IMG/VR virus record: IMGVR_UViG_3300048588_000114
Location: 15,309 to 79,308 of that record
Direction: 5' to 3' (one strand)
DNA: 64,000 bases
Source: a virus
Lineage: Duplodnaviria > Heunggongvirae > Uroviricota > Caudoviricetes
Below the pieces are notes generated by a model, which saw only the letters and a program-made list of their open reading frames with translations, was not told the origin of the DNA and did no database searches. The translations under genes were made by a program, and so were the position numbers. Below, piece after piece: positions 5,889 through 57,963 of the stretch; the stretch's first letter is position 1, and the number at the start of each line of letters is the position of its first letter.

Positions 5889-5936
5889 AATTAATCAAGC
5901 TGATAATTAGTCATTTACCCAATAATGGATAAAAAT

Positions 5937-5980
5937 CTTTGAAATATATTTGGTTTATGGGGAAATTCGCCTTATCTTAG
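5937..5980 (+). promoter_or_regulatory. Bacteroidetes-type promoter (-33 TTTG, -7 TATCTTAG)
   Basis: CTTTGAAATATATTTGG, then a 20 nt spacer, then TATCTTAG, about 27 nt upstream of the ATG at 6008. Same architecture at 7670, 9183, 24614 and 42223. Confidence 0.55.
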
Positions 5981-6007
5981 TAGCGAATTAATAAACAACC
6001 TCAAACC

Positions 6008-6379
6008 ATGAAAAATCAACAAAGCACTAAAAAGACTAAAGTAAGTCAATTTCCTGAATCTTTCAATGATAGGATTCACGGCAAAGTAACTAAAGTAGGT
6101 GAAACCAAGAACGGCAATGGCGCTACTTATCTAATTAATGAAGGCGATCACGCTGGTGGTCATCTTTATTTAAAGCCAATTGAAGTACTTAGCCGCTTCA
6201 TTAAACTATCTAGTCAGCATCCCGCCACTTACAGATTAATTGATCTTTTAAAAGAAAAAAGCGTAACTGTTGCTGAATTTTTAGTGTTTCTGGAACTTGA
6301 TAAGTTCACAAAAGAAGAAATATTAGATACAAACTATATTTCAGAACGTATTGATATTCATAAATCTCATAAATCCTAA
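6008..6379 (+). CDS. hypothetical protein
   Basis: 123 aa ORF downstream of the promoter motif. Confidence 0.55.
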   Translation: MKNQQSTKKTKVSQFPESFNDRIHGKVTKVGETKNGNGATYLINEGDHAGGHLYLKPIEVLSRFIKLSSQHPATYRLIDLLKEKSVTVAEFLVFLELDKFTKEEILDTNYISERIDIHKSHKS

Positions 6380-6957: not shown

Positions 6958-7611
6958 ATGACAACAGCAACAATTACAGTATATAGAACTCATCTAGGTT
7001 TAACTAATAGAAAATTCACCAAAGGAGAAGATGGTGTAGAAAGAATAGAACTTTATCCAGAAAATTTGGAGGTAAGAATACATTATGATTCTGGACAGAC
7101 AGTAATAACAACTGGCTTTCCGTATGAATTATTAGAGAAAGAGTTGCCTGAGGAAGAGATTGATCGCACTTTAACCCCGGAAGACAAGAAAGAACTCATG
7201 GAGGCTTTCTCAGTAGCCAGCGATAAAATAAAGGACGCTAAGTTGCTTGATTTTTATGTTACTTCTACTAATTTACTTCGTGAATATTGTGATAACAACA
7301 ATATTGGCAGGAAGGGAGAAAATATATTTGAGAGAGTGTTAGAGGCATTAGGCAATGCATCAGGAAGTCATCCGATGAGCCTTGAAGGGCTACATGTTTG
7401 TGTTAAGAGATATGTAAAATCACATTTCCCTAATGAGAAATTAGCGGTAACTGTGAGTTTCAAGTACTATTCAGTCAAAGTGGCTATGATTACTAATGCT
7501 AGTGCCTTAGAACTAAGAGAATTAGTAATGGATGGGCTAAAAGATAGGCCAAATGTGTCGTTTCCTAAACCAAAGGGCGCATCTGTTTATTTCAAGATAA
7601 ATCCAAAATAA
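6958..7611 (+). CDS. hypothetical protein
   Basis: 217 aa ORF. Confidence 0.55.
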   Translation: MTTATITVYRTHLGLTNRKFTKGEDGVERIELYPENLEVRIHYDSGQTVITTGFPYELLEKELPEEEIDRTLTPEDKKELMEAFSVASDKIKDAKLLDFYVTSTNLLREYCDNNNIGRKGENIFERVLEALGNASGSHPMSLEGLHVCVKRYVKSHFPNEKLAVTVSFKYYSVKVAMITNASALELRELVMDGLKDRPNVSFPKPKGASVYFKINPK

Positions 7612-7669
7612 ATAATCATACTATTATTCAGTAAGTTATACTGAACTGAATAAAATAGTTTGAAATATA

Positions 7670-7700
7670 TTTGGTTTTAGCTAAAAAGTCCGTATCTTAG
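7670..7700 (+). promoter_or_regulatory. Bacteroidetes-type promoter (TTTG, 19 nt spacer, TATCTTAG)
   Basis: GTTTGAAATATATTTGGTTTTAGCTAAAAAGTCCGTATCTTAG upstream of ATG at 7736; near-identical to the 5937 and 9183 copies. Confidence 0.55.
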
Positions 7701-7735
7701 TGGCTGAATTAATAACCTCTTAAAACAAAAAAATC

Positions 7736-8743: not shown

Positions 8744-9061
8744 ATGAACACACCGATAACAATACTAAAGACAACCGGGCCACTGAAGCTGATAACCGAT
8801 GGAAAAACAAGTGGTTGGGTGAAGCATAACTGGATCAACTTAGACGGTTCAATCAACAAGGAAGCCCAAGCCGCCTTATCCAAAGGGAAGCCGTATAACG
8901 GCACCGAACACGCCCTCACCATAAAGATATGGGTAGCTGAGGGAATGGCTGAGACGCACGCCCGGATAGCTCTCAAAGAGAAAGAAAGCAAGGGCGGGTT
9001 CCATACCTGGAAAGCAGAGCAGTACCGGGTGGAGGCCGTAAAACTCCGTGCTCAACGCTAA
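8744..9061 (+). CDS. hypothetical protein
   Basis: 105 aa ORF, followed by terminator. Confidence 0.5.
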   Translation: MNTPITILKTTGPLKLITDGKTSGWVKHNWINLDGSINKEAQAALSKGKPYNGTEHALTIKIWVAEGMAETHARIALKEKESKGGFHTWKAEQYRVEAVKLRAQR

Positions 9062-9089
9062 TCTGATTATTCCTTTCTGATTTATCCCA

Positions 9090-9121
9090 GTCCCGCCCCA
9101 ATAAGGCGGGATTGCTTTTTA
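9090..9121 (+). terminator. rho-independent terminator
   Basis: CCCGCC-CCAATAA-GGCGGG hairpin then ATTGCTTTTT. Confidence 0.65.
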
Positions 9122-9182
9122 AAATTAATTGCCCTAATAATCAGATAGTTATGAATTGAGGCCAAAAATAGTTTGAAATATA

Positions 9183-9214
9183 TTTGGTTTTTAGCTAAAG
9201 ACCCCTTATATTTG
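9183..9214 (+). promoter_or_regulatory. Bacteroidetes-type promoter (TTTG, 20 nt spacer, TATATTTG)
   Basis: AGTTTGAAATATATTTGGTTTTTAGCTAAAGACCCCTTATATTTG; the -7 box is a perfect TAnnTTTG. Confidence 0.6.
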
Positions 9215-9247
9215 TACTCACAAAACAACCTCAAAAACAAAGAAATC

Positions 9248-10324
9248 ATGACAACAGTAAATCCAAAATCGAAAAACACCGACAAGTCACTACCTAACTA
9301 CCCTTCAGGAACTCCTGTAGCCTTATTAATAGATGGAACAGAAGTTCAAGGGGAATTCTCTCACTGGACTAAACTCAACGAAGCATATATCAAAGCAAAC
9401 GGAACCAACTGGTGGAGAAAACCAGCTAAGTTTCGTGTATTAAGCACTGAAATGATGGCTCTCCAACAAGAACTTCACAACGCTAGAGAGAACGGCCAAG
9501 AACTTACAGAAGATGAGCATAATCAAATCATATCAGCACCTATCAACTTAGCCCCGGTAAAGACTTTTGATATCAACAAACGCTTTGAATTTTTAGGCTC
9601 TCTAACCAAAATGGTGTTACGTCAGGAGCAAGCCGCTTTAGTAGTGACTGGCGATGGTGGATTAGGTAAGACATTTGAAGTCCTAAAACAGTGCGATGCG
9701 ATGGGTCTTCGTAAATTAGGTTTGCCTGCAAACCCAGAAGATATGGATGATGCGGAATATACACCAAACGACATAGACGGTGATGGATACGATTATGTGG
9801 TGATCAAAGGCTATTCAACTCCTAAAGGTCTCTACCAAACTCTTTACACTCACCAAGACAAATTGATCATATTTGATGACTGCGACAGTGTTTTAATGGA
9901 TATGCAAGCAGTGAATATCCTTAAAGGTGCCCTGGATTCCTACGGACAAAGGGTGATTAGCTGGATATCAACAGTGCCAATGGAAGGTCTGCCTAACAGT
10001 TTTGAGTTCTTTGGCCGGGTGATCTTTATCTCTAACCGCAAGCGCACTCAAATCCCTCAGCCGATGATTAGCCGTGCTACTTCAATCGACGTATCAATGA
10101 CCGCTGACGAGAAGATCAATAGAATGAAGCATATCCTTGCTGACGTAAGGCCTGATCTGGACATGGATTTAAAAACAGAGTGTCTTGACATCCTTGAGAA
10201 ATACAAGCACTCAGCTAAAGACTTAAACGTGCGCACCCTCCTGAAAGTGATTAACATCAAAACCAGTAAGGTAGTGGCCGAAGCAGAACAGACTGAACTG
10301 GCTGAATACATGGTTCTCTCTTGA
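9248..10324 (+). CDS. P-loop NTPase (AAA/DnaA-like ATPase; possible replication initiation or helicase-loading factor)
   Basis: Walker A VVTGDGGLGKTFEV and Walker B KLIIFDDCDSV. ATG 9248 follows promoter; the upstream part of ORF 9173 is promoter sequence. Confidence 0.65.
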   Translation: MTTVNPKSKNTDKSLPNYPSGTPVALLIDGTEVQGEFSHWTKLNEAYIKANGTNWWRKPAKFRVLSTEMMALQQELHNARENGQELTEDEHNQIISAPINLAPVKTFDINKRFEFLGSLTKMVLRQEQAALVVTGDGGLGKTFEVLKQCDAMGLRKLGLPANPEDMDDAEYTPNDIDGDGYDYVVIKGYSTPKGLYQTLYTHQDKLIIFDDCDSVLMDMQAVNILKGALDSYGQRVISWISTVPMEGLPNSFEFFGRVIFISNRKRTQIPQPMISRATSIDVSMTADEKINRMKHILADVRPDLDMDLKTECLDILEKYKHSAKDLNVRTLLKVINIKTSKVVAEAEQTELAEYMVLS

Positions 10325-21136: not shown

Positions 21137-21365
21137 AGCGGCTGAACTCTGGCTTGTCGCTAACAACAAAGTGTATGATAAAGCCGACATTTACTATTCC
21201 CTTAGCGGGGCTTTCCCTTATGTGCAGGTGTCTTGGTCTCGCAATAGTGGCCCAGAGCCTCGAACTCATTCTCATCGTATTGATTTACCAAACTGGTTAG
21301 AGTTTTTAGGCGAACAGCTATTCATCTCCCAGTTCAAAGATACTATCAAAAAGAAGAAATCATGA
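21126..21365 (+). CDS. hypothetical small protein
   Basis: 79 aa ORF. Confidence 0.4.
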   Translation: MSSKAAELWLVANNKVYDKADIYYSLSGAFPYVQVSWSRNSGPEPRTHSHRIDLPNWLEFLGEQLFISQFKDTIKKKKS

Positions 21366-22525
21366 TCATAACTAAGAAAAGCAGATTGTTTAGCCAATTT
21401 GCGTCAATAAGTATCTGTAAAATAGCGTCCCGCCTAAAGTGCGATGCTCCAGCAACTGCCTATTTCATGGGCGCAGATGGTAAAGAAATCCGTTCAATTA
21501 ATGCTGAAATTAGGACGGGCTACGGTCTCCGGGCTTGGACAATCAATCATTTACTTGACTGGTTGATGAAGGAAAAGAAAATACTCATCCATATTGATCT
21601 AAGCTACGGTGTATTTAAGAGAACTTTCACTGGCAAGGTCTATTCCATAAACAAGCATGGCGGCTCTGTGAGTGTGAACTCAATGGTTCATAGTTCACCT
21701 AATTCAAGAACTGTAGTAGTCAAAACACTCCTGTGGACTTTAAAACACCTTGAGCAGCAATTAGTCATTGAGGCTCTAAAACCGGGAGAAATATTAGGTC
21801 GCACAACTCCTGATAAGCCTAAAGTTGATTGGCGTGATAAGGCAATGGATAATATGCATGGTCATCATCAAATTGCTGATGTTGTAAAGAAAGTAACAAA
21901 GAAATATGTCGGAAAGCCAAACACGCCAATAAACCGGGTGCGAATTAAAAGAGACGTAAAGAAAGCCGTAACAGAGGAATTAGGGCTTGATAATATTGCC
22001 CGTAATGCCGCTGCTAAGCTCAACACAAAGGTTGGGCCACTTAAAGGATTTAAGGTGCCTAAAGGCAAGATTTCAGACAAGCCGGGCATGATTAAGCCGC
22101 TCATTGAAGGAAATATTAAGCCGGGGAAGTCATCTATCATTGGTCATATCTCAAAGACAGTCAAGAACAAGAAAGGAATCATTATCACTGCTGAGTTAAA
22201 CAAGACCGGGATGGATTTAGTTGATAAAATTAAGACCGGGCCTATTAGAAAGGGAGATTCCGTGAAAAGAAAAGTAGGTGATAAATTTCAACCAGACCCA
22301 GATAAAGGCAAAGTCATTAGTATCAGCAGAGGCAAAGCAAAAGTGAGGTGGCCCAAAGGCTCTCACCGTCTATCTTCAACAGAAAAATTCTTAATGATGG
22401 GAACATTTAAGAAAGCCACTGTAACTATTCATCCATTAGAAAGACTAATTAAATGCGATGATTCAAAGCCTAAGAAGCCAAAAGACCCTAATGCTCATAT
22501 GTTAAACGGCTGTCAAGCATTGTAA
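21362..22525 (+). CDS. hypothetical lysine-rich basic protein
   Basis: 387 aa, K/R-rich (possible nucleic-acid binding). Confidence 0.55.
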   Translation: MIITKKSRLFSQFASISICKIASRLKCDAPATAYFMGADGKEIRSINAEIRTGYGLRAWTINHLLDWLMKEKKILIHIDLSYGVFKRTFTGKVYSINKHGGSVSVNSMVHSSPNSRTVVVKTLLWTLKHLEQQLVIEALKPGEILGRTTPDKPKVDWRDKAMDNMHGHHQIADVVKKVTKKYVGKPNTPINRVRIKRDVKKAVTEELGLDNIARNAAAKLNTKVGPLKGFKVPKGKISDKPGMIKPLIEGNIKPGKSSIIGHISKTVKNKKGIIITAELNKTGMDLVDKIKTGPIRKGDSVKRKVGDKFQPDPDKGKVISISRGKAKVRWPKGSHRLSSTEKFLMMGTFKKATVTIHPLERLIKCDDSKPKKPKDPNAHMLNGCQAL

Positions 22526-22527
22526 TT

Positions 22528-22962
22528 ATGGAGTTTATAGAAATAGACCCGCTAAATCCACTACCTTTAGGGGAAGTATTAGCCACCGATGGCAATGGCC
22601 TCTATCTACTGGGTGAATTACATCGTGTGAACTTAGGCAATATCATATGTATTGGTAATAAAGAGGAGCTACCACGTGTAACTCACTATCTCATACCGGA
22701 GAAACCAATCAAGAAAGTCCTACTACCTCCACGTGAGCAGCCATATAATCAGATTGTGGCTAACCTAAGCCTACTAAAGTCTCACGGACTTATTAAATCA
22801 ACCGGGCGCAAGCGTTTCATGATCATAGGAGACATCCCAGCGGACATGAAATGTAGCCGCAAGAAGGCCACAGAGGAACCACAGTTATCTACCACCGATG
22901 AACGAACAGAAAATAATTCACCGGACTTATCTGAACAGGCCACGGAAGAAGGGCATGGGTGA
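22528..22962 (+). CDS. hypothetical protein
   Basis: 144 aa ORF. Confidence 0.5.
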   Translation: MEFIEIDPLNPLPLGEVLATDGNGLYLLGELHRVNLGNIICIGNKEELPRVTHYLIPEKPIKKVLLPPREQPYNQIVANLSLLKSHGLIKSTGRKRFMIIGDIPADMKCSRKKATEEPQLSTTDERTENNSPDLSEQATEEGHG

Positions 22963-23179
22963 TACAGGCATATACGTGAAGTTCACTAATAACGCAGGTG
23001 AAACAATACACGGCAAAGTCCTGAATAAAGACCAAACCACCGAACTCGCTAAGAAGAACTTGGTAGCTTTGCTTGTTATGAATGAGGATTATAGTAAGCA
23101 TCTATTCACCTCTCAAGGCAAGCTATTGAGAATGCTTGTGAAAGCTAGTAAATTACAACTAACAGGCTATATAAACTAA
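22955..23179 (+). CDS. hypothetical small protein
   Basis: ORF 22898-23179; ATG 22955 (MGDTGIYVKF) overlaps upstream stop by 8 nt. Confidence 0.4.
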   Translation: MGDTGIYVKFTNNAGETIHGKVLNKDQTTELAKKNLVALLVMNEDYSKHLFTSQGKLLRMLVKASKLQLTGYIN

Positions 23180-23460
23180 TGAAAAAGCCAAAAGCAGAAG
23201 ATTTCATATTCCCAAATGATCCAACTGGAGCTAAGCAATGGGCAGCATACTCTAAAGCTAAGGCTGAATGGAGGCTTGCGAAAAAGAACGATGAAGTGGT
23301 GGTTGATAGTGAAATTAAACGCTTGAAGAAGAAAATCAATGATATAGCTGATGGGCCAGCTTTAGAATATAATTGTCCATATAGTAAGGATTCTAAGTTC
23401 TGTGAACATTATCAAAAATCAGCGATGAAATGTATAGAGTGTATAGGTCATGAAAGCTAA
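23179..23460 (+). CDS. hypothetical protein with Cys cluster
   Basis: 93 aa; CPYSKDSKFCEHY...CIECIGH. Confidence 0.45.
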   Translation: MKKPKAEDFIFPNDPTGAKQWAAYSKAKAEWRLAKKNDEVVVDSEIKRLKKKINDIADGPALEYNCPYSKDSKFCEHYQKSAMKCIECIGHES

Positions 23461-23580
23461 GAAAAAGAAAGCCCTGAAGAAGGCAAAGAAGCTAATTAGT
23501 AGAGTTACCGGGCCATGGGAAGGTCATGAAACTGAGCATAAACTCTTTAAGATACTAAAGAAACTAAGCAAAGCGATATA

Positions 23581-24057
23581 ATGGAAATAGTCATACATAC
23601 CGGAACCCTAAAGAACTTAGGGCCAAATTGGTGGATGGTGGAGCATAAAGGCATATCCTACAATGTAAGCAGCGGCTCAATGGAGATGATTGAGTTGGGA
23701 ACTCTAAAAGACGGCGATGATGTTCAATTTTGGATCATCAACAGTCCAGCAGAAACTAAGAGTATAATGCCTGACTGGGTGTGTCTACGCTGTCCTCACT
23801 GCCATAATTATGGTGATGCTGGTAAACATCCGCATATTCAGAATAAGCATATCCTACAATTTAACAATGAAATGATTGACTTATCCCATCCGGCTTGGGC
23901 AAGGCTGGAGGTATTGGATGATAAAGGCGTTGTTATTCCTAATGTCGTGTGTCTTAATACAAAGACGTTAATGGCGACACTTAGAGGAGTTACAGAAGGA
24001 GGAATGATTGGAACTTGGGAAAAGCAATTAGAAAACATAACATTTAGACTAAGATAG
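23581..24057 (+). CDS. hypothetical protein with CxxC...HCH zinc-binding motif
   Basis: WVCLRCPHCHNYGD. Confidence 0.5.
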   Translation: MEIVIHTGTLKNLGPNWWMVEHKGISYNVSSGSMEMIELGTLKDGDDVQFWIINSPAETKSIMPDWVCLRCPHCHNYGDAGKHPHIQNKHILQFNNEMIDLSHPAWARLEVLDDKGVVIPNVVCLNTKTLMATLRGVTEGGMIGTWEKQLENITFRLR

Positions 24058-24543
24058 ATGAAAATCCTTGCCATCCTTCAGAACGCCTACTCTGACCCAC
24101 GCAGGGCGGTTCTCCTTCGTGAGATGCTGTCCTTTGTAATCAATCCGGAAAACCTCACTGGTAAGAAACTCTATCGTATTACGGCGGGGCATGAATTACG
24201 TGTAGCGAACGCCTGTCCTGAAGTTTTCCATACCGTTGCGGAAACAGGAAAAACAGACCTTGAGAGACTGAAGAAATCAATCAAAGAATATGATTATGAC
24301 CTGTATATTAGTTGCGGTAAGCAATCTAATCATGCCTGTATAGCTATTATTGATGCTTTCAAAGGCAAACCATTAATCATAATGCCTCATCCAGCATCTA
24401 GAAACCTAACGAACGCACTGCTTGATGCCGTTAAAAAGAGTATTGTATTAGTGAAACCTAATCAGGTGTATGAGTTTATGCAAGAGAAAGGCCGTCACCG
24501 CTTAGTGATATCTAATAAAACATTTGAGAAATATGATGTTTAG
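24058..24543 (+). CDS. hypothetical protein
   Basis: 161 aa; start overlaps upstream stop (TAGATG). Confidence 0.5.
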   Translation: MKILAILQNAYSDPRRAVLLREMLSFVINPENLTGKKLYRITAGHELRVANACPEVFHTVAETGKTDLERLKKSIKEYDYDLYISCGKQSNHACIAIIDAFKGKPLIIMPHPASRNLTNALLDAVKKSIVLVKPNQVYEFMQEKGRHRLVISNKTFEKYDV

Positions 24544-24613
24544 CGGCTTAGCTAAGGGCCACAAAATTAATCATGCTGAAATTCAACGTTTTACCCATTA
24601 AAGCAAAAATAAA

Positions 24614-24645
24614 TTTGGTTTCTGTGTAAAGATCGCTTAACTTAG
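24614..24645 (+). promoter_or_regulatory. Bacteroidetes-type promoter (TTTG, 20 nt spacer, TAACTTAG)
   Basis: AAATAAATTTGGTTTCTGTGTAAAGATCGCTTAACTTAGTGG upstream of ATG 24673; near-identical to the copy at 42223. Confidence 0.55.
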
Positions 24646-24672
24646 TGGTCATAAACTTAAAACAAGCAAATC

Positions 24673-25893
24673 ATGAAAACAACAATTACAACGATAATCT
24701 TAGTGTTATCAATCAGCCTACGGGCTCAAACCTGCTCAATTGGCGCTTCTCCCATGTTCCAGAACGTCAACTGTCAACTGTCCTCAATACAGGGAGTTAC
24801 CATTTCATCCACTCCAGCCAATGTCTCCTACACGATTTACAATCCAAGCGGGACTTCATTTACATCCGGCGCTAATACTACGGTATATCAGCCACTCGGA
24901 ACTGGCTCATATACAGTTAAGTTGCTGGATATAAATACTGGATGCACTAACACCGCTCAGTTCGCAGTTGCTTCTGCTGACGTTTATCCTACTTACACCC
25001 TATCGCCTTCGTCATTTGTATTAGGCTGTGCGCCTAAAGACGTGTTTATTCTGGGCATAACAACCACTACTTCATCAGGTGCTCCGACATATACGGTGCT
25101 TTCTCCGGGTAGCCCTACAGCGGTTCCGAACGCCCCACTCGGCATTCAGAATAATTATAACATCAACTCAACTGGAGTTTGGACAGTAATTGTTAGAGGT
25201 AACAATGGTTGCCAAACACGTGTGCCTATTACAGTGACTGAAAATACTATTGCTCCGACCTTTTCAGTGTCGGCGTTTATAAGCACCTTGACCTGCTCAC
25301 AGCCTACTACCTCTATTGCGGGGACTTCTTCAGCACAGGTAAATTATGTGTGGGCAGGTCAAACAACTACTGTTACAGGTGGAATGCTCACCGTATCCAC
25401 CAATACAGCTATCCCTTCTAATGGTCTGATTAACAGCTACACGCTCAATGTGATTGACGCTAATAACGGCTGTACTTCAAGCACTATCTTGCCTGTATAT
25501 CAGAATATAACCACTCCTACACTGAATATCGGGTCTACATATACGTTAGATTGTTGGTCTAACTCAGTATTGATTGACCCAATTAATCCTAACCTAAATT
25601 ACAATTTCAGCTGGACAGGAGGCATAAATACACCATCTTTATCCGTGACTGCTCCCGGAGGCTATACACTTCAAACTACTAATCCTACAAACGGATGCTC
25701 ATTGATGAGTTCGGTGACCGTGTACACCTGTCAGAGCGTAGGAATTGAAGAATATGCGCTTGATCCAAATGCGGTATTCTCCTATACAGACCTAATGGGC
25801 CGTCCGATGGATAAAGCCTTTAATGTCCCGATGATAGAGTGGGTAAAGGTGGGAGACAGAATATTGAGCCGTAAATTACTAATTCAAAACTAA
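24673..25893 (+). CDS. secreted SprB-repeat protein with short T9SS-type C-terminal tail
   Basis: Signal peptide MKTTITTIILVLSISLRAQ, then five ~80 aa Cys-framed repeats (e.g. YNFSWTGG...GGYTLQTTNPTNGCSLMSSVTV) resembling SprB repeats, ending in VKVGDRILSRKLLIQN. Confidence 0.6.
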   Translation: MKTTITTIILVLSISLRAQTCSIGASPMFQNVNCQLSSIQGVTISSTPANVSYTIYNPSGTSFTSGANTTVYQPLGTGSYTVKLLDINTGCTNTAQFAVASADVYPTYTLSPSSFVLGCAPKDVFILGITTTTSSGAPTYTVLSPGSPTAVPNAPLGIQNNYNINSTGVWTVIVRGNNGCQTRVPITVTENTIAPTFSVSAFISTLTCSQPTTSIAGTSSAQVNYVWAGQTTTVTGGMLTVSTNTAIPSNGLINSYTLNVIDANNGCTSSTILPVYQNITTPTLNIGSTYTLDCWSNSVLIDPINPNLNYNFSWTGGINTPSLSVTAPGGYTLQTTNPTNGCSLMSSVTVYTCQSVGIEEYALDPNAVFSYTDLMGRPMDKAFNVPMIEWVKVGDRILSRKLLIQN

Positions 25894-29134: not shown

Positions 29135-30028
29135 ATGAGCAATGACGAATATCAACACCAAAACACCTTTAAGAATATGAAAAGAGCTATTGTAATACAA
29201 GGCGGGGGTAGTTACGGAGCATACACTGCTGGCCGTATCTGTCGCCGAAAACTCAATTATGACGCTGCCGTAGGTAGCTCAACAGGTGCGCTAATTGCGC
29301 CTTTCGCTCTCTTAGGACAATATAGTGTTCTAGAAACCGGATACACAACCATTGGAAATAAAGAGATTTATTCAAGAACTCCATTCTGGGGTGACGGAAT
29401 ACCTAAGGTTTATTTGGCTCTTTGGTCTTGGATTAGGCAGAAAAAGGGCATCACTGATTCAAAACCGCTCCGCAAACTAATCGGGCAACTTTACACTCAA
29501 AAGATGCATGAATCCATCCCAGCACTAGGAAAGAAGCTATATGTGACTGGTTGTAATTTAAACTCCAATGTAACACCATCAAAATACTATGATTCGGCGG
29601 CATATACTTGGGAACAGTACTGTGATCTAATCTGGGCCTCAACGCTGGTTCCCGGACTACTTGAGCCCTACCATTCAGATTTACCCATCTTCAAAGGTAT
29701 AGATATGGTAGATGGTGGAACAACTGAGAATGTTGGAATGCGTGTTATAACTAATAAGAATTATGACTTCGTAGATATTTACCTTCATAATACTATCAAA
29801 TACGGCATGAAAGAGGAGGGGAAGAACTGGATTCACAACCTCATCCGGGCTTTAATCATTCAGCGAGAAGAAGTCATAAATGATGATTTGTATAGTAATT
29901 TAGATGGGATTAATCATAAAATACACTACCTACCTAAACCTTTGGAAGGGGCTGGGGCTATGGATTTTCAACCAAAAGTGATGCGTAAATGGTTTGATCA
30001 AGGCTTCCACGCTAATGTGGATTCTTAG
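29135..30028 (+). CDS. patatin-like phospholipase
   Basis: Oxyanion-hole GGGSYGAYTAG, nucleophile elbow G-S-S-T-G (GxSxG), and the catalytic Asp motif DGG in VDGGTTENVG. Confidence 0.8.
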   Translation: MSNDEYQHQNTFKNMKRAIVIQGGGSYGAYTAGRICRRKLNYDAAVGSSTGALIAPFALLGQYSVLETGYTTIGNKEIYSRTPFWGDGIPKVYLALWSWIRQKKGITDSKPLRKLIGQLYTQKMHESIPALGKKLYVTGCNLNSNVTPSKYYDSAAYTWEQYCDLIWASTLVPGLLEPYHSDLPIFKGIDMVDGGTTENVGMRVITNKNYDFVDIYLHNTIKYGMKEEGKNWIHNLIRALIIQREEVINDDLYSNLDGINHKIHYLPKPLEGAGAMDFQPKVMRKWFDQGFHANVDS

Positions 30029-30845: not shown

Positions 30846-31163
30846 ATGAAAAAATCAGTCCTTATCCTCTGTTGTGCGCTCCTATTAGGAGCCTGTAACA
30901 GCGTTGCGGCTGGCTATTCACGCGCCCCTGACCGGGACGTAGGCCAGAACTACGAAAGTGTAAGCGCACCTGCGCACGATGTATTTGTGATCAACGAACA
31001 GTACGGCCAGGAACTACCTACCGCCGTGGATTTCGGAGCAGCTGTAGAGATACCTGCGCCGGAGGAAACCACCGGATATGGAGTGACCGCCAATGCAAAA
31101 CCGATAAGCCCCGGATTAACCCGGAAAATCTACCTGCTGAATTGCTCCATTAGGCAGTGTTAG
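30846..31163 (+). CDS. lipoprotein
   Basis: MKKSVLILCCALLLGAC signal peptide with lipobox LLGAC; two C-terminal cysteines. Confidence 0.55.
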   Translation: MKKSVLILCCALLLGACNSVAAGYSRAPDRDVGQNYESVSAPAHDVFVINEQYGQELPTAVDFGAAVEIPAPEETTGYGVTANAKPISPGLTRKIYLLNCSIRQC

Positions 31164-31220: not shown

Positions 31221-31277
31221 TAGCCACCACAGTTCCCCAGAGTTATTGTGGATATAACCATAAAAACAAATAAAAAT

Positions 31278-32780
31278 ATGATTACAACAGCAATTACCAT
31301 CGGAGTACCAGCAGTATTGGCGCTCATCATCATTCTCTACGTCTTTACCCTGAGACGCATTGTGCCCACTAACGTAGTGCACATTGTACAAAGAGGAAAG
31401 AACACTGTATCCTACGGAGTAGGCAAGGGGGACAACGTTTACTACGCATTTCCAAGCTGGATGCCTGTTATAGGCGTAGTTGTGCGTGAACTTCCAGTGT
31501 CTAACTTTGGGATAGACCTACATGAATACAATGCCTACGACAAGGACAGGGTGCCTTTTGTAGTAGATATCAAGGCGTTCTTCCATATTTCTGACACTAA
31601 TAAGGCGGCAGAGAAGGTTGAATCCTACGAAGAACTGGAGAAGCACCTTGAGAACGTGGTTCAAGGTTCCGTTAGGTCTATCCTTGCGCAGTCCAAGTTA
31701 GAAGAAATCATGGAAGGACGTTCAGAATTTGGGGAAAAGTTTACGTCCAATGTTAAGAGTGACCTGCTTCAATGGGGAGTTGAGCCAATCAAAAACATCG
31801 AACTCATGGATGTCCGGGATGCTAAGGAATCTACGGTCATTAAACAGATTATGGCGAAACGGATGTCGGCAATTGATTCTGAATCACGCACGGAGATAGC
31901 TAAGAACAAGCAATCAGCGGAGCAGGCAGAATTAGCTTCCAAACAAGCCATCGCTGTAAGTGCTGCCGAAACCAACCTAAAAATAGGAGAAGCGCAAGCT
32001 CAATCTGACCAAGCTGTAGCTATTGCAAAGGCTGAAAGTGAGAAGAAAGCTGGTATCGCTAAGCAAGAATCCATTGCTGAGGTTGCCAAATCAGAGAAAG
32101 ACACTGCTGAGAAACAGATGGATGTAATTCGCACTAAACAGACTAAGCAGGCAGAGATTGACAAAGAAACGGCCATCATCGCATCAGAACAGGAAGCCCG
32201 TCAGATGGAGATTAAAGCAGAAGCAGCCAAGAAGCAGCTTGAAATCCAGACCAACGCTAACAAAATGAAAGTTGAGACCGATGCGGAAGCCCGGAGAATA
32301 GCCACCGAGAAGGACGCAGCAGCCCTGCTTATTAAACAGGAGAATGAAGCCAAAGGTAAGGCAGCAGTTGGTAAGGCAGAAGCATCCATCATTGAAGCCA
32401 AAGGTACAGCGGAAGCAGAGGCTAAGAAACTTTATGAATTAGCCAGTGTAACCGCTCAGACTACTCTCGCTAAGGATATTGGTGACAATAAGGAATACCA
32501 AACCTACATGATCGAACTGAGAAAGGTTGAAATGAATGAGAAAATAGGTGTTGCACAGGCTGAGAATCTCGCAGTAGCGATGAAAGATGCTGACCTGAAA
32601 GTTCTCGTTAATAGTGGGGACGTACATTCAGGCATTGGTAAGCTATCCGACCTTTTCACCTCTAAAGGTGCTTCTCAGCTAAACGGCCTAATTGAAGGCT
32701 TGGGACAAACTGAAGGAGGTCAGGCTATCGTAGACCTTTTAGATAAAATCGGTGTGAAATTACCAACTAAAGCTAAGTAA
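31278..32780 (+). CDS. flotillin-like SPFH/band-7 domain membrane protein
   Basis: N-terminal TM ITTAITIGVPAVLALIIILYVF, SPFH-like core (VVHIVQRGKNTV...), then a long Ala/Glu/Lys-rich coiled coil (AEAEAKK) typical of flotillins. Confidence 0.75.
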   Translation: MITTAITIGVPAVLALIIILYVFTLRRIVPTNVVHIVQRGKNTVSYGVGKGDNVYYAFPSWMPVIGVVVRELPVSNFGIDLHEYNAYDKDRVPFVVDIKAFFHISDTNKAAEKVESYEELEKHLENVVQGSVRSILAQSKLEEIMEGRSEFGEKFTSNVKSDLLQWGVEPIKNIELMDVRDAKESTVIKQIMAKRMSAIDSESRTEIAKNKQSAEQAELASKQAIAVSAAETNLKIGEAQAQSDQAVAIAKAESEKKAGIAKQESIAEVAKSEKDTAEKQMDVIRTKQTKQAEIDKETAIIASEQEARQMEIKAEAAKKQLEIQTNANKMKVETDAEARRIATEKDAAALLIKQENEAKGKAAVGKAEASIIEAKGTAEAEAKKLYELASVTAQTTLAKDIGDNKEYQTYMIELRKVEMNEKIGVAQAENLAVAMKDADLKVLVNSGDVHSGIGKLSDLFTSKGASQLNGLIEGLGQTEGGQAIVDLLDKIGVKLPTKAK

Positions 32781-38016: not shown

Positions 38017-38057
38017 ACAATAATTCAGCTATAATCCTGATAAGGTTAAGTAATGCT

Positions 38058-38090
38058 AAAAGGGTGGGGCTTAGGCTTCACCCTTTTTGT
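38058..38090 (+). terminator. rho-independent terminator
   Basis: GGGTG-GGGCTTAGGCTT-CACCC followed by TTTTTG. Confidence 0.55.
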
Positions 38091-38118
38091 TCATTGTTAT
38101 TTATCAAAAGTACTAATT

Positions 38119-39855
38119 ATGCTAAAGAGTAGCATTGACCTAAGTGTGCCTAAATTGATCTTACCTAACACAGCAAATGCTTCGTATGGTAGGAACGATG
38201 TGGTAACACTAGACCAAGCACGTGAAGTTTACCGGGTTGTAGATGACCTCATTGATGGACTGGATGATGTGTCCCTTGATTTGCTATTTAGTGCCTCAGA
38301 GCATGATGTAGACAGGGTTTTATCCACTTTCTTTGAAGAATCATATGCTGTAATGTATGGCGGTGAGACACGTATCAAGGAAACATCTGTCAATTATCTG
38401 GAGAGATTATCTGAGAATATAGAAGAAGTATTGAGGGTTGAGAATTTCAACTATTTCCTAACCAATGTTCTCACTAATTTTGATATAAATTGGCACCACT
38501 TAGAGTGGGGGAGTTTAGCTCAGAATAATCGCTTCACTAATTTTATTGCTCCACGTGACCACGGAAAGACCTATTTTTTCTCTAATGCAATGACTTGTTG
38601 GCGTCTTTATCGCTATAAAGACCCGGATAGTGTAGCTAGACATCTAAGAAAAAGAAATGAACTTAATCGAAAAGGCTTCATTATCACTAATGAGATGGAG
38701 TTGGCCGAAGAAATCTTAGAGACTGTAAAGAATACCATAGAGGAACATGATATTTTACATGAAAGGCTCTATCCTAATACAAAAGACAACTGGTCAAAGC
38801 GTAGTATTAAGTGTAAAAACGGAGCAAGAGTAGGTTTAAAATCCTACGGTGGTAGCTTCCGGGGGCGCCACCCCGGTTGGATTACAGTGGATGACTTCTT
38901 AAAAGACAATGTGCTCTATTCTGAGGTTCAAAGAAAGAAAGCAATCGACTACTTTCACTCAGTAATTATGAATGCTATTTCTCCGGGTGGTAGCGTTACT
39001 GTAGTTGGAACACCATTCCATCAAAATGACCTCTACGGAGACCTAAAGACCAAGAAAACTTGGAAATGCTTTGAATATCCTGCTATTACTCCGCATGGAG
39101 ATGTATTATGGAGAACCCGTTATTCCTATAAAGACCTTATTGAGAAGCGTGAGGCGCAAGGAAATATCATTTTCTCTCGTGAAATCTTAGTTGTACCCAT
39201 ATCAAGCAACTCTACTTTATTCCCTTGGAATGTATTGAAGCGTTGTTTCATAGGTATGCAAGACTACACATTAGTGAAAAATAGAGATTCATTCCCTAAG
39301 AAATTCACAAAAGTAGTAACTGCTTGTGATTTCGCAAGAAGCGCCAATGTAGGTGCTGATTATTCAGCATTTACAACTTGGGGGATAGACGAGAATGAGG
39401 ATATGTGGCTATTGCATATCTGGAGGGCTAAAGGTCGGTCATTCCGTGATCAAATCAATGCCGTTAAGTCAATAAACGCTAACTTCAGGCCAGATGTAAT
39501 TGTGATGGAGGTCAACCAATTCCAGCAGATTATGGCTGATATTGCTGAAGAAGAAGGATTAACCAATGTTGTTCCACATACTACTACTGGTAAGAATAAG
39601 CATGACTTTATCATCGGTGTTCCGGGCTTAGCTATCCTATTTGAGAAAGGAAAAATACACATACCACGTGGAGATCAGTACAGCCGGGATGCCTCTGATG
39701 TTCTCATGTCTGAATTAAGTGCGATAGCATGGACAGATGAGGGAATACAGGGTGTTGGAGAGCATGATGATATGGCTATATCTACTTGGTTGGGAACAAT
39801 TGGAGCAAGAAAAATAGGTGTTGGCTTTGGACTTAGCTTCTTAGCGGCAGCATAA
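38119..39855 (+). CDS. terL: terminase large subunit (TerL)
   Basis: ATPase Walker A FIAPRDHGKTYFFS and Walker B ITVDDF. C-terminal RNase-H-like nuclease acidic motifs VVTACDFARS...DYSAFTTWG, DVIVMEVNQFQ and GEHDDMAIS. Confidence 0.85.
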   Translation: MLKSSIDLSVPKLILPNTANASYGRNDVVTLDQAREVYRVVDDLIDGLDDVSLDLLFSASEHDVDRVLSTFFEESYAVMYGGETRIKETSVNYLERLSENIEEVLRVENFNYFLTNVLTNFDINWHHLEWGSLAQNNRFTNFIAPRDHGKTYFFSNAMTCWRLYRYKDPDSVARHLRKRNELNRKGFIITNEMELAEEILETVKNTIEEHDILHERLYPNTKDNWSKRSIKCKNGARVGLKSYGGSFRGRHPGWITVDDFLKDNVLYSEVQRKKAIDYFHSVIMNAISPGGSVTVVGTPFHQNDLYGDLKTKKTWKCFEYPAITPHGDVLWRTRYSYKDLIEKREAQGNIIFSREILVVPISSNSTLFPWNVLKRCFIGMQDYTLVKNRDSFPKKFTKVVTACDFARSANVGADYSAFTTWGIDENEDMWLLHIWRAKGRSFRDQINAVKSINANFRPDVIVMEVNQFQQIMADIAEEEGLTNVVPHTTTGKNKHDFIIGVPGLAILFEKGKIHIPRGDQYSRDASDVLMSELSAIAWTDEGIQGVGEHDDMAISTWLGTIGARKIGVGFGLSFLAAA

Positions 39856-53496: not shown

Positions 53497-55149
53497 ATGG
53501 CTGGAAATAAGTTAGAGAAACTAATTCAATTAGAGCAAAAAGTAGGTAAACTAAAGGACAGGGAGATTGAAAAAGCCCTTTCCTCTAGCGACCCTAATGA
53601 GCTCATAAAAGCCCACTTAGCTTTCCAGAAGCAAGTAGAGGCACGTCAAGATCACGGCCACAAAGCATATCTGGTTGACCCTAATGAGTTCCAAAGTTCT
53701 TTTGGCTACAAAGATCGACCAGTCAATTTGTCCTATAATATGCTGAAGGGAATGGCGAGAGTGCCTGTAATTAATGCGGTCATAAAGACCCGTATCAATC
53801 AGGTTGCTGCTTTCTGTGAGCCTCAGAAGAATGAATATAGTGTTGGCTATGTTATTCGAAAACGTAAACTACCCGGTGAGAACTCTCCTACTAAAATGAC
53901 TAAGGATGAGAGACAGGAAATTTATGATCTTCAGGATTTCATGGAGAATTGTGGGGAAACAAATGTCTGGGGTGCTGATGATTTTGATGCTTTCTGTAGA
54001 AAGATAATCAGAGATAGTCTTGTATTTGATCAAATGACCTTTGAAGTAGAGAGGGACAGAAGAGGAAAGCCAGTGGCTTTTTATGCTGTAGATGCTTCTA
54101 CAATGAGACTATCTGAAAGTTTCGATGATCAGAACTATGAGCAGTATAAGAACACAATCAATGTAGGTACGAAGATAGCTAAGGTTCAAAATTACTATCC
54201 TTCCTATGCTCAGATATTGGATGGTAGTGTACATGAGCTATTTTATCCATGGGAAATGTGCTTTGGTATTCGGAATCCCACTACTGATGTTACAATGTCA
54301 GGATATGGAGTTTCTGAGTTAGAAGAATTAGTGTCTGTGGTTACATCTCTTGTCTGGGGAGAAGAATATAACAGACGTTTCTTCAAGCAAGGTTCTGCGC
54401 CTAAGGGTATTCTTAGGATTTCAGGCTCAATGCCTGATCATAAATTGAATGAGTTTAGGCAGAATTGGAACTCCACTATGCGTGGTGTCCAAAACGCCCA
54501 CCGAACTCCGGTTCTCGAAGCAGAGAAAGCTGATTGGATTGATCTTCAGCGCAATAATCGGGACATGGAGTTCACTCAATGGATGGAGTTCCTAATTAAG
54601 GTAGCTTGCGCCATTTATACCATAGACCCTTCTGAGATTAACTTCCCTATGAGTGGCTCAGCTGGCTCTTCTCCTATGTTTGGAGAAAACAAAGAGTCAA
54701 CATTGAAGTTTTCTCAAATGAAAGGTCTTTATCCCATCCTAAAGTTCCTACAAAAACGCATCAATAAGTATCTTATTCAGCCACGCAATCCTAAGTATGA
54801 GTTTGCTTTTGTTGGTTTAGATGCGATGACACCTAAGGAACAAGCCGAACTGGATGAGAAGTCAGTTAAAACCTACAAGACGGTGAATGAGTTGAGGAAA
54901 GAAAAGAACCTCAAGCCATTGCCGGGCGGGGATATATTGCTTGATTCTACTTTCGCTAGGGCTGTAAATGCAGAGAAACAGAGACAAATGATGGATGATA
55001 GCCAAGGATATGAGGACGGCGGTGCCGGGGCAGAAGAAGCCATTATTTCAGGTAAATATCCCGGCGGTGAGGCTGAGGAAGAACTGGATAAAAATAATCC
55101 AATTATCAAATCCTTAGAGGAGTTCTTGATTGGCATCAATACGAAATAA
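53497..55149 (+). CDS. candidate portal protein
   Basis: 550 aa at the head of the capsid-morphogenesis block; size and position are typical. No decisive motif. Confidence 0.45.
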   Translation: MAGNKLEKLIQLEQKVGKLKDREIEKALSSSDPNELIKAHLAFQKQVEARQDHGHKAYLVDPNEFQSSFGYKDRPVNLSYNMLKGMARVPVINAVIKTRINQVAAFCEPQKNEYSVGYVIRKRKLPGENSPTKMTKDERQEIYDLQDFMENCGETNVWGADDFDAFCRKIIRDSLVFDQMTFEVERDRRGKPVAFYAVDASTMRLSESFDDQNYEQYKNTINVGTKIAKVQNYYPSYAQILDGSVHELFYPWEMCFGIRNPTTDVTMSGYGVSELEELVSVVTSLVWGEEYNRRFFKQGSAPKGILRISGSMPDHKLNEFRQNWNSTMRGVQNAHRTPVLEAEKADWIDLQRNNRDMEFTQWMEFLIKVACAIYTIDPSEINFPMSGSAGSSPMFGENKESTLKFSQMKGLYPILKFLQKRINKYLIQPRNPKYEFAFVGLDAMTPKEQAELDEKSVKTYKTVNELRKEKNLKPLPGGDILLDSTFARAVNAEKQRQMMDDSQGYEDGGAGAEEAIISGKYPGGEAEEELDKNNPIIKSLEEFLIGINTK

Positions 55150-57089: not shown

Positions 57090-57963
57090 AAATCAACATC
57101 TCATTTTCTTGGCTAATACAGTTGGGACTGGTATTCTCTCCCAATCTGACTTAGATATTCTAACTAGTCATGGGATAGATGTGACTAAATTACCCACATA
57201 TGGTGTAGTTGACGATGCTTTTCGTTTCGGAATATTAGCGGATGCGCTTGGAAGCGAGAAAGCTAAGAAAATGTCTTATAGTGATTTCAAGAATACCCTA
57301 AAGAGTGGCGGTTTCCTTCCCTTAACTAAGGCAGAAAAAATTAGTCTTGATCACATAAAGCAACGCACTTATAGTGATGTAACTGGATTAGGTACTAAAA
57401 TCGGTAAAGATTTAAGCAATATAGTCATAGAGAACTCTAAGAAACAAAGAGCGCAATATGAGAAAATTCTACAAGATACAATAGCTGCTGGCGCTGAGAA
57501 GAGCAGGTCTGCTCGTGAAATTGCTTCAGATTTAGGCCACGCCACAAAAGATTGGGCAAGGGACTTCGATCGCATAGCTGATTATGTACTTCATGAAGCT
57601 TTTGATACAGGTAAAGCCATGTCCATACTAAGAGAAGCGGAGGCGGCTGGTGAAGAAGCGTATGGCTACAAAGAAGTTTATGAAGGAGCATGTCAGCATT
57701 GTATTAGTCTTTATCTAACAGACGGCATTGGAAGTAAGCCCCGGATATTCAAAATGTCTACACTCATTGCCAACGGCTCTAATATTGGTCGGACGGTAAA
57801 GGAATGGAAACCCGTGATAGGCTGTACTCATCCTTGGTGCCGTTGCGAATTATACCATCTCAGACCTAATAATGAGTGGGATTCAGAAAAGAAAATGTTT
57901 GTCCTTAAACGTAACACCTACGGAGTTACAAGGAAATCTAAAATCAAAATCATATCGGAATAA
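57043..57963 (+). CDS. putative head-morphogenesis protein (Mu gpF / SPP1 gp7-like position) with C-terminal Cys4 motif
   Basis: 306 aa between portal region and protease; CQHC...CTHPWCRC zinc-like cluster. Confidence 0.45.
   Translation: MILTPAQIQELVKIIENQHLIFLANTVGTGILSQSDLDILTSHGIDVTKLPTYGVVDDAFRFGILADALGSEKAKKMSYSDFKNTLKSGGFLPLTKAEKISLDHIKQRTYSDVTGLGTKIGKDLSNIVIENSKKQRAQYEKILQDTIAAGAEKSRSAREIASDLGHATKDWARDFDRIADYVLHEAFDTGKAMSILREAEAAGEEAYGYKEVYEGACQHCISLYLTDGIGSKPRIFKMSTLIANGSNIGRTVKEWKPVIGCTHPWCRCELYHLRPNNEWDSEKKMFVLKRNTYGVTRKSKIKIISE

Follow-up and report, generated by a model that had tools for sequence, protein, structure and literature searches.

Phage-encoded cargo of the T9SS type has one earlier report, with canonical sorting domains: Cryophage encodes type A cargo that was proposed to alter the host surface or to mediate superinfection or competition (Bellas et al. 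2020, PMC7468147). Phages of P. gingivalis encode Q-rule proteins (PMC10367356), the Q-rule having been described for signal peptides of Bacteroidota (PMC5837995). The last 22 aa of the HBP35 C-terminal domain (CTD) are enough to secrete GFP, and a type C CTD, neither A nor B, also exists (PMC10202324). Mapping of phage resistance in Flavobacterium leads to genes for gliding and for the T9SS (PMC9804748; bioRxiv 10.1101/2020.10.02.323337). What is new here is a phage gene that has kept a host adhesin passenger and in which the sorting domain has been swapped for a short conserved tag, found also in unrelated Bacteroidota phages.

The gene lies in a 64,000-nucleotide stretch of DNA, called the window below, whose TerL, portal and MCP genes and unidirectional gene order bear out its earlier assignment to a phage. 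TerL is closest to that of Bacteroides phages (37% identity) and the portal protein to that of a Chryseobacterium phage (41%). The open reading frame is real and starts at the first in-frame start codon (24673-25893, + strand; 406 aa, stop codon included in the coordinates). It is surrounded by small non-structural genes, and TerL follows about 12 kb downstream. Searches of the neighbouring genes against Pfam and PHROGs returned only one patatin domain and one PHROG of unknown function, and no sign of lysogeny was found within the window. Five orthologs (P0002-P0006, 41-64% identity) share its architecture on phage-like contigs, and the INPHARED phage collection held no match to the DNA or protein of the region. 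Fast evolution of the gene was considered and dropped, identity to the orthologs being average for this phage; the protein changes no faster than is usual among its neighbours in the phage, unlike some receptor-interaction genes.

Residues 1-18 (24673-24726, + strand) form a predicted Sec signal peptide, assigned from sequence, hydropathy and the N-termini of MAG homologs. The N-terminus reads MKTTITTIILVLSISLRA followed by QTC, with a lysine at position 2 and a hydrophobic core reaching 2.45 on the Kyte-Doolittle scale. Predicted signal peptidase I cleavage between LRA and QTC would expose Gln19, as the Bacteroidota Q-rule describes; this residue is invariant in the alignment of six family members, and the MAG homologs begin alike (...SAQTSC or ...NAQTTC). 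The core, the lysine and the invariant glutamine fit a Sec signal peptide and support predicted Sec export, a property that this tail-bearing protein has in common with type A CTD cargo. Lipoprotein identity was rejected because AQTC is not a lipobox.

After the signal peptide come Cys-framed repeats. An earlier reading, made from the sequence alone, had counted about five, described them as SprB repeats and given them a shared Y-x-F-x-W...GGYT...NGC...V-x-V pattern. The framing is present, and alignment of the repeats together with a repeat HMM resolves four PKD/Ig-like units, all on the + strand: repeat 1 (aa 22-106, 24736-24990; Cys34 and Cys91, plus Cys21), which is co-linear with the MAG homologs; repeat 2 (aa 107-195, 24991-25257; Cys119 and Cys180); repeat 3 (aa 196-282, 25258-25518; Cys208 and Cys267), the most variable in length; and repeat 4 (aa 283-353, 25519-25731; Cys294 and Cys342, plus Cys353). 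Ten cysteines are invariant across the six family members. The pattern occurs literally only in repeat 4 (YNFSW...GGYT...NGC...VTV), the others showing just a tL.C...Y...G.YT...NGC...V skeleton. The SprB identity did not survive, since neither the window protein nor any of its five relatives matches PF13573 at E<=10; matches to that model are confined to some giant distant relatives.

Modelling instead places the repeats, by predicted fold, among tandem PKD/Ig-like beta-sandwich repeats of the GhpA type. The best Foldseek match is GhpA itself (E 6e-14); the full-length AF2 model is poor (pLDDT 56). GhpA (the grappling-hook protein of Aureispira; PDB 9flp, 9fly, 9flu) and the SprB-type giant gliding adhesins are T9SS-secreted surface filaments built, like the phage protein, from tandem disulfide-containing Ig-like repeats, and a few giant sequence relatives of the phage protein also match Pfam SprB. 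The phage protein differs in size (406 aa against about 5,900-6,500 aa) and has itself neither a PF13573 match nor a type B CTD. Identity between GhpA and the phage protein is only 16-19%, with no sequence-level PDB match; a PDB sequence search with the family and tail profiles was equally empty.

The passenger has relatives encoded on the chromosomes of freshwater Bacteroidota MAGs. Six homologs (P0007, P0008 and P0010-13) carry PF18962 (E 1e-35 to 2e-7), and the passenger homology is significant and co-linear (E 1.5e-35 for P0007 and 1.1e-28 for P0008). By tblastn, 24 MAG loci labelled Sphingobacteriaceae, Sphingobacteriia or Bacteroidia are co-linear with aa 26-350/365 at 32-37% identity. 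P0008 sits among the housekeeping genes TruB, MTHFR and NifU. This freshwater Bacteroidota family of PKD/Ig-repeat T9SS cargo (P0007, P0008; L003-L026) resembles the phage protein in its Q-rule signal peptide and AQTxC N-terminus, in its Cys-framed repeats and in the VGIEE junction that follows the last of them. The MAG and metagenome proteins differ in having 6 to more than 15 repeats against four, and in their C-terminus, a canonical CTD of type A (PF18962) or type B (CHU_C-like) where the phage protein has a 45-aa tail; the ends of the MAG paralogs read YPNP...KLLKN (type A) or PNVFTPNGD... (type B). More widely, 26,040 representatives match the family profile, the top ones being multi-repeat proteins of 1-7 thousand aa; among six of these taken as a sample, CHU_C matches three significantly, and Por_Secre_tail reaches 24.7 bits in one, short of its cut-off of 27. 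These homologies establish, at the level of sequence, that the passenger was acquired from a Bacteroidota surface-protein family whose members carry type A or B T9SS CTDs for export in the host lineage. The earlier tie to T9SS-secreted surface proteins, and to a T9SS-bearing Bacteroidota host, is thereby upheld through homologs in Bacteroidota MAGs that carry PF18962 or CHU_C.

The protein continues beyond the repeats with 53 aa of linker and tail, ending in the letters quoted in the sequence-only reading (...KVGDRILSRKLLIQN). The junction QSVGIEEYA (aa 354-362, 25732-25758, + strand) is common to the passenger-CTD junction of the type A CTD homologs found in MAGs of the host lineage and in metagenomes, and is flexible or disordered in the AF2 prediction. 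It leads into a beta-rich, charged C-terminal module, LDPNAVFSYTDLMGRPMDKAFNVPMIEWVKVGDRILSRKLLIQN (aa 363-406, 25759-25890, + strand), that sits where the T9SS CTD would be. For the tail, AF2 gives four short strands with moderate confidence (pLDDT 54-76), so that at ~45 aa it does not fit a seven-strand Ig-like domain of about 70-100 aa. It resembles the type A CTD (PF18962/TIGR04183) in lying C-terminal to a Sec-exported passenger, in being modular on different passengers, in keeping the junction motif of the host type A homologs, and in its beta-rich make-up with a basic-hydrophobic last strand. The type A CTD, in contrast, is a seven-strand sandwich of about 80 aa with PNP and GxY motifs; the tail, at 45-50 aa, is about half that length and has neither motif.

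The same end had been likened to the terminal strand of a type A CTD, a resemblance the profile comparisons do not support. Matches to PF18962, PF13585 (CHU_C), TIGR04183 and TIGR04131 numbered zero for the window protein and its five relatives at E<=10; the sequence-only reading had itself listed the lack of significant SprB-repeat or CTD matches as refuting it, and formally that is the outcome. An HMM built from the type A CTDs of 12 homologs scored the tails at -1.3 to 0.1 bits, with shuffles up to 9.6, and one built from 22 MAG type B CTDs at -2.1 to 2.0 bits, with shuffles up to 6.2. HMMs of CTD blocks D and E did no better on the tails than on shuffles. With hhalign, the only segment of the tail aligned to CTD profiles was the 7-column VGIEE junction (probability 2%), and nine tails together scored 6.9, under most of 30 column-shuffled controls; similarity in these comparisons ends at the junction. 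The last residues, MDKAFNVPMIEWVKVGDRILSRKLL, can be aligned to LDAAPGVYFISIYKSGQRLYHSKLL of a MAG homolog, but 32 of 500 shuffles do equally well, and no such motif D/E-like alignment is seen in the other family members. A CTD with internal deletions was rejected after whole-CTD HMMs, block HMMs, long-gap-tolerant pairwise alignment and hhalign all failed to beat shuffles, as was a trimeric-autotransporter-like anchor, which would need longer, less charged strands and the terminal aromatic residue that is missing here. Together these data indicate that in the phage copies the ~80-aa CTD following VGIEE has been replaced by a conserved, predicted beta-rich module of ~45 aa. Given that neither SprB nor CTD models match significantly, T9SS-dependent secretion would be one of two live possibilities and no longer the default.

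The tail is conserved in nine proteins, with a consensus of GIEE-x8-11-YYDLMGNxIxKRfNEvIIEqvG-x3-RKxxI in which G, K, N, I and G are invariant across eight aligned sequences and occupy the same columns in the nine-sequence alignment. It behaves as a unit under selection: between the window protein and P0002 it is 74% identical, against 64% for the whole protein. The same tail ends P0163, P0164, P0165 and the L031 protein, which have Q-rule signal peptides of their own and a different passenger of ~100 aa, and which therefore mark it as a modular tag; P0163-P0165 also share the GIE(E/Q) junction motif. It thus occurs on two passenger types and in at least two unrelated phage types. The L029 tail gene adjoins Terminase_3, Portal_Mu and Mu_F, and that of L031 lies between an integrase and TerL in an unrelated temperate phage. 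The tail accordingly behaves as a portable module, and among the roughly nine carriers known, some of them on contigs too short for certain phage assignment, every one with an informative context is a phage; so far the candidate tag has been seen only in phage or phage-like contigs.

Recovery of further carriers was sparse. IMG/VR and JGI metagenomes yielded nothing when scanned with the whole protein, with the alignment of the family or of eight tails, with repeat 4 plus tail or with the Band_7 neighbour, and a 3-sequence tail alignment, the sole query to recover an IMG/VR contig, found one. A tail-only search of a 5.8-billion-protein index returned nothing, not even the window protein's own family, so that it carries no weight as a negative. 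No other CTD- or repeat-bearing open reading frames were found in the window or in the L001 and L002 contigs.

Upstream of the gene lies a promoter/leader cassette (24555-24672, + strand) that is conserved in the family. It comprises an upstream element TAATCATGCTGAAATTCA (24568-24585), a T-rich TTTTAC (24589-24594), an extended -7 box TAAATTTGGTTT (24610-24621) and a leader element TTAGTGGTCATAAA (24642-24655), all on the + strand. The TAAATTTG box (24610-24617) lies 55 nt before the ATG inside a 129-nt gap, and the leader is A-rich with no Shine-Dalgarno sequence. Across the five family members with DNA sequence, the cassette is 78-82% identical while the proteins are only 41-64% identical. 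Homologous cassettes lie in the window at 5890-6007, 7611-7735 and 9124-9247, and WWWTTTGGTTT matches four times against 1.05 expected, each time on the + strand, in an intergenic position and 55-62 nt before an ATG. All four uses of this cassette class fall in the non-structural half of the window, the structural half having none. With its Bacteroidota -7 consensus, the conserved cassette sustains the earlier claim that the gene has its own host-type promoter, and shows the gene to be the predicted first member of a transcription unit. For the conserved leader, Rfam gave no RNA family and consensus folding no conserved structure and no covariation, and a generic sigma-70 promoter and terminator scan performed at chance level. 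Co-acquisition of the promoter from the host was dropped, no match being present upstream of the MAG homologs. As no terminator was found after the gene and the next open reading frame begins 3 nt downstream, the gene is probably not a self-contained moron; its promoter cassette is conserved, and its neighbourhood differs in the related phage L001.

Were the protein ordinary T9SS cargo, its SprB repeats and type A CTD would take it through SprA to cleavage by PorU and to anchoring or release like host cargo. The homologs are true T9SS cargo, the signal peptide and VGIEE junction have been kept, an alignment of the end with motifs D and E of a single MAG CTD is possible, the 22 last CTD residues can suffice for secretion (PMC10202324), and phages with canonical CTD cargo exist (PMC7468147). 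We nevertheless regard this as unlikely: none of the six members matches any of the five SprB and CTD models, HMMs of the closest homologs' CTDs give about 0 bits, below many shuffles, the nine-tail hhalign score falls under most of its controls, the tail is too short beside a CTD, and the motif D/E alignment is within reach of shuffled sequence and confined to one member. The specific replacement of the CTD with the rest of the cargo retained speaks for a periplasmic decoy that jams the T9SS. Sorting by the T9SS requires the CTD and needs no other signal (PMC10202324), so cargo lacking a functional one would be expected to remain periplasmic. There the tail could bind a component of the T9SS or of the outer membrane, or the passenger could bind the partners of host adhesins, either way stopping gliding and keeping receptor adhesins from being exported or displayed. 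A tail that is conserved and modular would then have a binding function of its own, and since T9SS and gliding genes are the main phage-resistance route in Flavobacterium (PMC9804748), a phage that switched them off would keep competitors out. The passengers of the small tail-bearing proteins are unrelated, which argues that the tail and not passenger mimicry carries the function, and a tail serving as an export tag is equally simple; jamming is a serious contender, if a doubtful one.

Decoration of the virion, or a tail adhesin with Ig-like domains of the Hoc kind assembled in the cytoplasm, is very unlikely in view of the conserved cleavable signal peptide with Gln19 in all members and of ten invariant cysteines that require an oxidising compartment. 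The distance of the gene from TerL, the absence of its promoter class from the structural half, the integrase beside the L031 tail gene and the lack of any PHROGs match, structural ones included, to the window protein point the same way. The PKD/Ig-like repeats of this family do build adhesins such as GhpA (bioRxiv 10.1101/2024.01.29.577165), and the product might instead be an auxiliary adhesin or carbohydrate-binding protein that helps the host during infection or lysogeny, for example in attachment to particles or polysaccharide, with no role between phages. Some members have weak SusE/F-like and galactose-binding-like Pfam matches and a GH16 gene lies nearby in L001, but those matches fall short of threshold, a signal peptide is missing from the GH16 protein, the window gives no sign of lysogeny, and the replacement of the CTD would be left unexplained. 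We consider this account quite unlikely.

The reading we prefer combines a host-derived passenger, a phage tail tag, envelope remodelling and protection by exclusion or against re-adsorption, and as a whole we give it a probability of about 45%. Because the tail has been seen only in phage-like contexts and also on other exported phage proteins, the copy of a host adhesin in this large Bacteroidota phage, with its tag replaced, is probably a phage device that alters the envelope of the infected cell. The product is most likely an envelope-targeted surface-remodelling or superinfection-exclusion protein, exclusion or masking being inferred solely by analogy and from where the gene lies. In this model, host RNA polymerase would read the cassette early or midway through infection, the protein would cross the inner membrane and its cysteine pairs would oxidise in the periplasm. 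The C-terminal module would serve as a targeting or anchoring tag instead of a CTD, either as a minimal T9SS signal displaying the passenger on the surface or by docking at a T9SS or outer-membrane component. The envelope of the infected or lysogenic cell would then be remodelled, with host adhesins of the same family, T9SS-dependent surface proteins of the sort on which Bacteroidota phages rely, masked or displaced, and superinfection would be excluded or progeny shielded from re-adsorption.

It is possible, and we put it forward tentatively, that the tail represents a new class of envelope-sorting signal in Bacteroidota phages, either a miniature T9SS export tag with which phages could put any passenger into the host's secretion system or a CTD mimic that docks on the T9SS and blocks it; phages of several lineages would use it to reprogramme the host surface. 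A minimal T9SS signal would bear on what the T9SS recognises and would offer a compact secretion tag for engineering. A blocking tag would be a phage-encoded inhibitor of the system behind gliding, virulence and phage susceptibility in Bacteroidota. Either way, the gene opens up for study the host range and surface biology of a freshwater phage-host pair that is uncultured.

Among the closest known systems are the Cryophage cargo genes (PMC7468147), which are phage-encoded, exported and laid out on the host T9SS cargo architecture. Recognisable type A sorting domains are present there, on enzymes and a PA14 protein, whereas here a shorter and different module follows an adhesin-like passenger. 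A second point of comparison is provided by T5 Llp, phi80/N15 Cor and lambda Bor and Lom, exported phage proteins that act on the host envelope and whose genes lie outside the structural modules; of these, Lom forms an outer-membrane barrel and the other three are lipoproteins. The window protein bears no sequence or fold relation to any of them and, unlike them, is a predicted soluble signal peptidase I substrate with adhesin repeats and a function that is inferred. It resembles them in belonging outside the structural modules, with one tail-bearing gene, that of L031, beside an integrase.

The window is a portion of a large phage. All of its genes lie on one strand, and they encode a T4-type TerL (38053-39855), a portal (53497-55149) and an MCP (61769-63289), along with a UvrD-like helicase and an SPFH/Band_7 protein. 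The nearest relatives of the TerL are from DAC19 and SJC03, Bacteroides phages of ~170 kb (37% identity), and that of the portal is from Chryseobacterium phage MA9V-3 (41%), with no nucleotide-level relative in the phage collection. A catalytic domain of the eukaryotic/poxvirus topoisomerase IB type (PF01028, E 5e-18) is found in a 662-aa protein (57963-59951) encoded between portal and major capsid protein, seemingly an unusual site for such a domain in a phage. The gene at 24673..25893 (+) is a real coding sequence for a 406-aa protein and lies ~12 kb upstream of TerL amid small unannotated ORFs; a patatin-like phospholipase (29135-30028; PF01734, E 3e-15) is found downstream of it, also amid unannotated genes. 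Five orthologs or relatives (P0002-P0006), which are 41-64% identical to the window protein and share its architecture, are encoded on phage-like metagenomic contigs, among them one of 106 kb and one of 34 kb on which synteny to the Band_7 gene is kept. On the related 106-kb contig, L001, a GH16 glycoside hydrolase that lacks a signal peptide (8872-9576) sits just upstream of the gene copy, whereas the window has five unrelated ORFs at this position (21362-24543); the neighbourhood is thus variable around a conserved gene and promoter. A second envelope-directed locus of the window comprises a small lipoprotein (30846-31163; MKKSVLILCCALLLGAC...) directly upstream of the 510-aa SPFH/Band_7 protein (31248-32780); the pair is kept in the related contig L002, and the Band_7 gene in L001 too.

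The N-terminus of the 406-aa protein, MKTTITTIILVLSISLRA followed by QTC, fits a signal peptidase I substrate in its charge, its hydrophobic core and the small residues at its cleavage site, and Gln19 is invariant in 6/6 family members, in support of the signal peptide proposed by the sequence-only reading. A lipoprotein was rejected, as this N-terminus has no lipobox. The invariant Gln agrees with the Bacteroidota "Q-rule", in which Gln is exposed on signal-peptide cleavage (PMC5837995), and Q-rule phage proteins were known earlier from Porphyromonas phages (PMC10367356). About five Cys-framed repeats of ~80 aa had been described; the Cys framing holds, and the mature part consists of four such repeats of 71-89 aa (aa 22-106, 107-195, 196-282 and 283-353), each with a conserved Cys frame, ten Cys being invariant across the family. 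The repeat pattern quoted for them is literal in repeat 4 and absent in that form from repeats 1-3. The passenger is 30% Ser/Thr and nearly without charge; the final 53 aa are charged and Ser/Thr-poor.

A host-type promoter of the gene's own was likewise supported. In the 129-nt upstream gap, 55 nt ahead of the ATG, stands TAAATTTGGTTT, which includes TAnnTTTG, the -7 consensus of Bacteroidota, and 9 of the 23 plus-strand TAnnTTTG sites fall within the non-coding 9% of the window. The ~120-nt upstream region is 78-82% identical in all five family members with DNA, which exceeds protein conservation. Four copies of this cassette occur in the window, all on the + strand, within the first 25 kb and in the non-structural half: at 5890-6007, 7611-7735 and 9124-9247, before genes for cytoplasmic proteins starting at 6008, 7736 and 9248 (the last a P-loop protein, 9248-10324), and at 24555-24672, before the gene at 24673. 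Each has the layout ATTAATCAnnCTgAtAATtCAG ... TTTAC ... TAwATTTGGTTT ... CTTAnCTTAGTgG ... AAAAC ... ATGA, 55-62 nt before the ATG. The leader is A-rich, without a visible Shine-Dalgarno sequence, and searches for an RNA family or a conserved structure in it were negative; no terminator follows the 24673..25893 gene. The cassette probably represents a phage promoter class of the early or middle type, and the gene at 24673 is predicted to be expressed from this recurrent class; status as a self-contained moron is not supported.

The claim of SprB repeats and a type A T9SS C-terminal domain (CTD) did not hold up. Neither the SprB repeat (PF13573) nor the CTD models Por_Secre_tail (PF18962), CHU_C (PF13585), TIGR04183 and TIGR04131 matched any of the six members, even at E<=10, and PHROGs gave nothing for the window protein. 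Farther homologs (E 1e-35 to 2e-7) are 356-653-aa, PF18962-bearing proteins, one encoded amid housekeeping genes. Scanning species-representative genomes gave 24 loci in MAGs of uncultured Bacteroidota, largely from freshwater and with the labels Sphingobacteriaceae, Sphingobacteriia or Bacteroidia, aligning co-linearly with aa 26-350/365 of the phage protein at 32-37% identity. Their N-termini (...SAQTSC, ...NAQTTC) are similar to that of the phage protein and their C-termini are type A (...YPNP...KLLKN) or type B (PNVFTPNGD...) CTDs. These cellular homologs (L003-L026; for example L007 and L016) are often tandem, with two or three paralogs per locus and several loci per MAG; type A or type B CTDs occur on the same passenger kind among paralogs of one family, which suggests CTD-type swapping within the cellular family. 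The phage-family profile matched 26,040 representatives, the top matches being proteins of 1-7 k aa with 9-50 stretches of the repeat profile each. Six sampled top matches included three with significant CHU_C and one with sub-threshold Por_Secre_tail (24.7 bits, cut-off 27); PKD and Ig_7 were present as well, and SprB on occasion. The best structural match of the repeats is GhpA, a T9SS-secreted grappling-hook protein built of Ig-like repeats (bioRxiv 10.1101/2024.01.29.577165). These homolog, profile and structural matches therefore place the repeats in the PKD/Ig class found in giant T9SS adhesins; by definition they are not SprB repeats. The passenger is descended from T9SS cargo, and the whole protein, as predicted from sequence, is a Sec-exported chain of four PKD/Ig-like domains with ancestry in host T9SS adhesins.

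A junction, C-(xx)-VGIEE, follows the last repeat in both the phage proteins and the type A CTD homologs. After it the cellular homologs have a ~80-aa CTD, whereas the phage proteins have ~45 aa instead, with the consensus ...YYDLMGRxIxKRFNEVIIEKVGxRxRKLII. AF2 predicts a flexible junction and then four short strands, with moderate confidence. As a shortened CTD, the tail failed throughout: hhalign aligned only the 7-column junction (probability 2%), HMMs built on the CTDs of the closest homologs (12 of type A, 22 of type B) gave the tails ~0 bits, with many shuffles higher, and HMMs of single conserved CTD blocks scored them no better than shuffles. The best pairwise alignment, of the last 25 aa of the window protein with the D and E motifs in a single MAG CTD, was equalled by 32/500 shuffles, so that the likeness to a type A CTD strand noted earlier is a real visual resemblance, though without significance; this alignment was not seen in other family members. 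With nine tails, the hhalign score was under most of 30 column-shuffled controls. The tail therefore has no demonstrable membership in any CTD type.

The tail is instead an independent module. Its conservation at least equals that of the passenger (74% vs 64% identity, window protein against P0002). Three small proteins (P0163-P0165; 169-177 aa) were picked up with a profile built on repeat 4 and the tail; each combines a Q-rule signal peptide of its own with another kind of ~100-aa passenger and the shared ending GIE(E/Q)...YYDLMGN.I.KR.NE.IIEQVG...RK..I. The gene for one of these three (contig L029, 74-583) adjoins Terminase_3, Portal_Mu and Mu_F, which form a head module with no relation to the one in the window phage; a further tail-bearing gene (contig L031, IMG/VR UViG_3300023103_000032, 879-1394) lies between a tyrosine integrase and TerL, and both are from a phage lineage different from that of the window. 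Conversion genes typically occupy such a site next to an integrase. The proteins of these two contigs (169-170 aa) each consist of a Q-rule signal peptide, one ~100-aa beta passenger and a tail as in the window protein. Searches of limited sensitivity found no tail match in the MAG loci, other ORFs of the window and related contigs, or PDB. A word-indexed protein search with the tail-only alignment as query gave no hits and missed even the family members, though these score 85 bits locally; short-query negatives of this search are not trustworthy. All tail carriers with informative context are phage. In the phage proteins, a portable tail so far known from phage contexts only stands in place of the CTD.

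These data allow us to propose that the tail would replace the CTD in sorting or anchoring. T9SS sorting requires the CTD, which is also sufficient as its signal (PMC10202324), and CTD-less cargo would therefore otherwise be expected to stay periplasmic, where the protein may simply act. The literature does allow short or non-canonical sorting signals, given that the final 22 aa of the HBP35 CTD suffice for GFP secretion and that, apart from types A and B, there is an unrelated type C CTD (PMC10202324); the protein may be exported through the T9SS, or it may dock on or jam that system. A role in the virion is unlikely, as the signal peptide, Cys pattern and gene position speak against it. Gliding and T9SS mutations are the main origin of Flavobacterium phage resistance (PMC9804748; bioRxiv 10.1101/2020.10.02.323337), and an envelope protein that mimics or displaces T9SS adhesins would thus fit superinfection exclusion or receptor masking. 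The testable and potentially more novel core of this proposal is the tail as a new sorting signal or T9SS inhibitor. Cryophage offers one precedent for phage-encoded T9SS cargo, with canonical type A domains (PMC7468147); in contrast, the window protein has a modular tail instead of a CTD, and this tail is found in more than one phage lineage.
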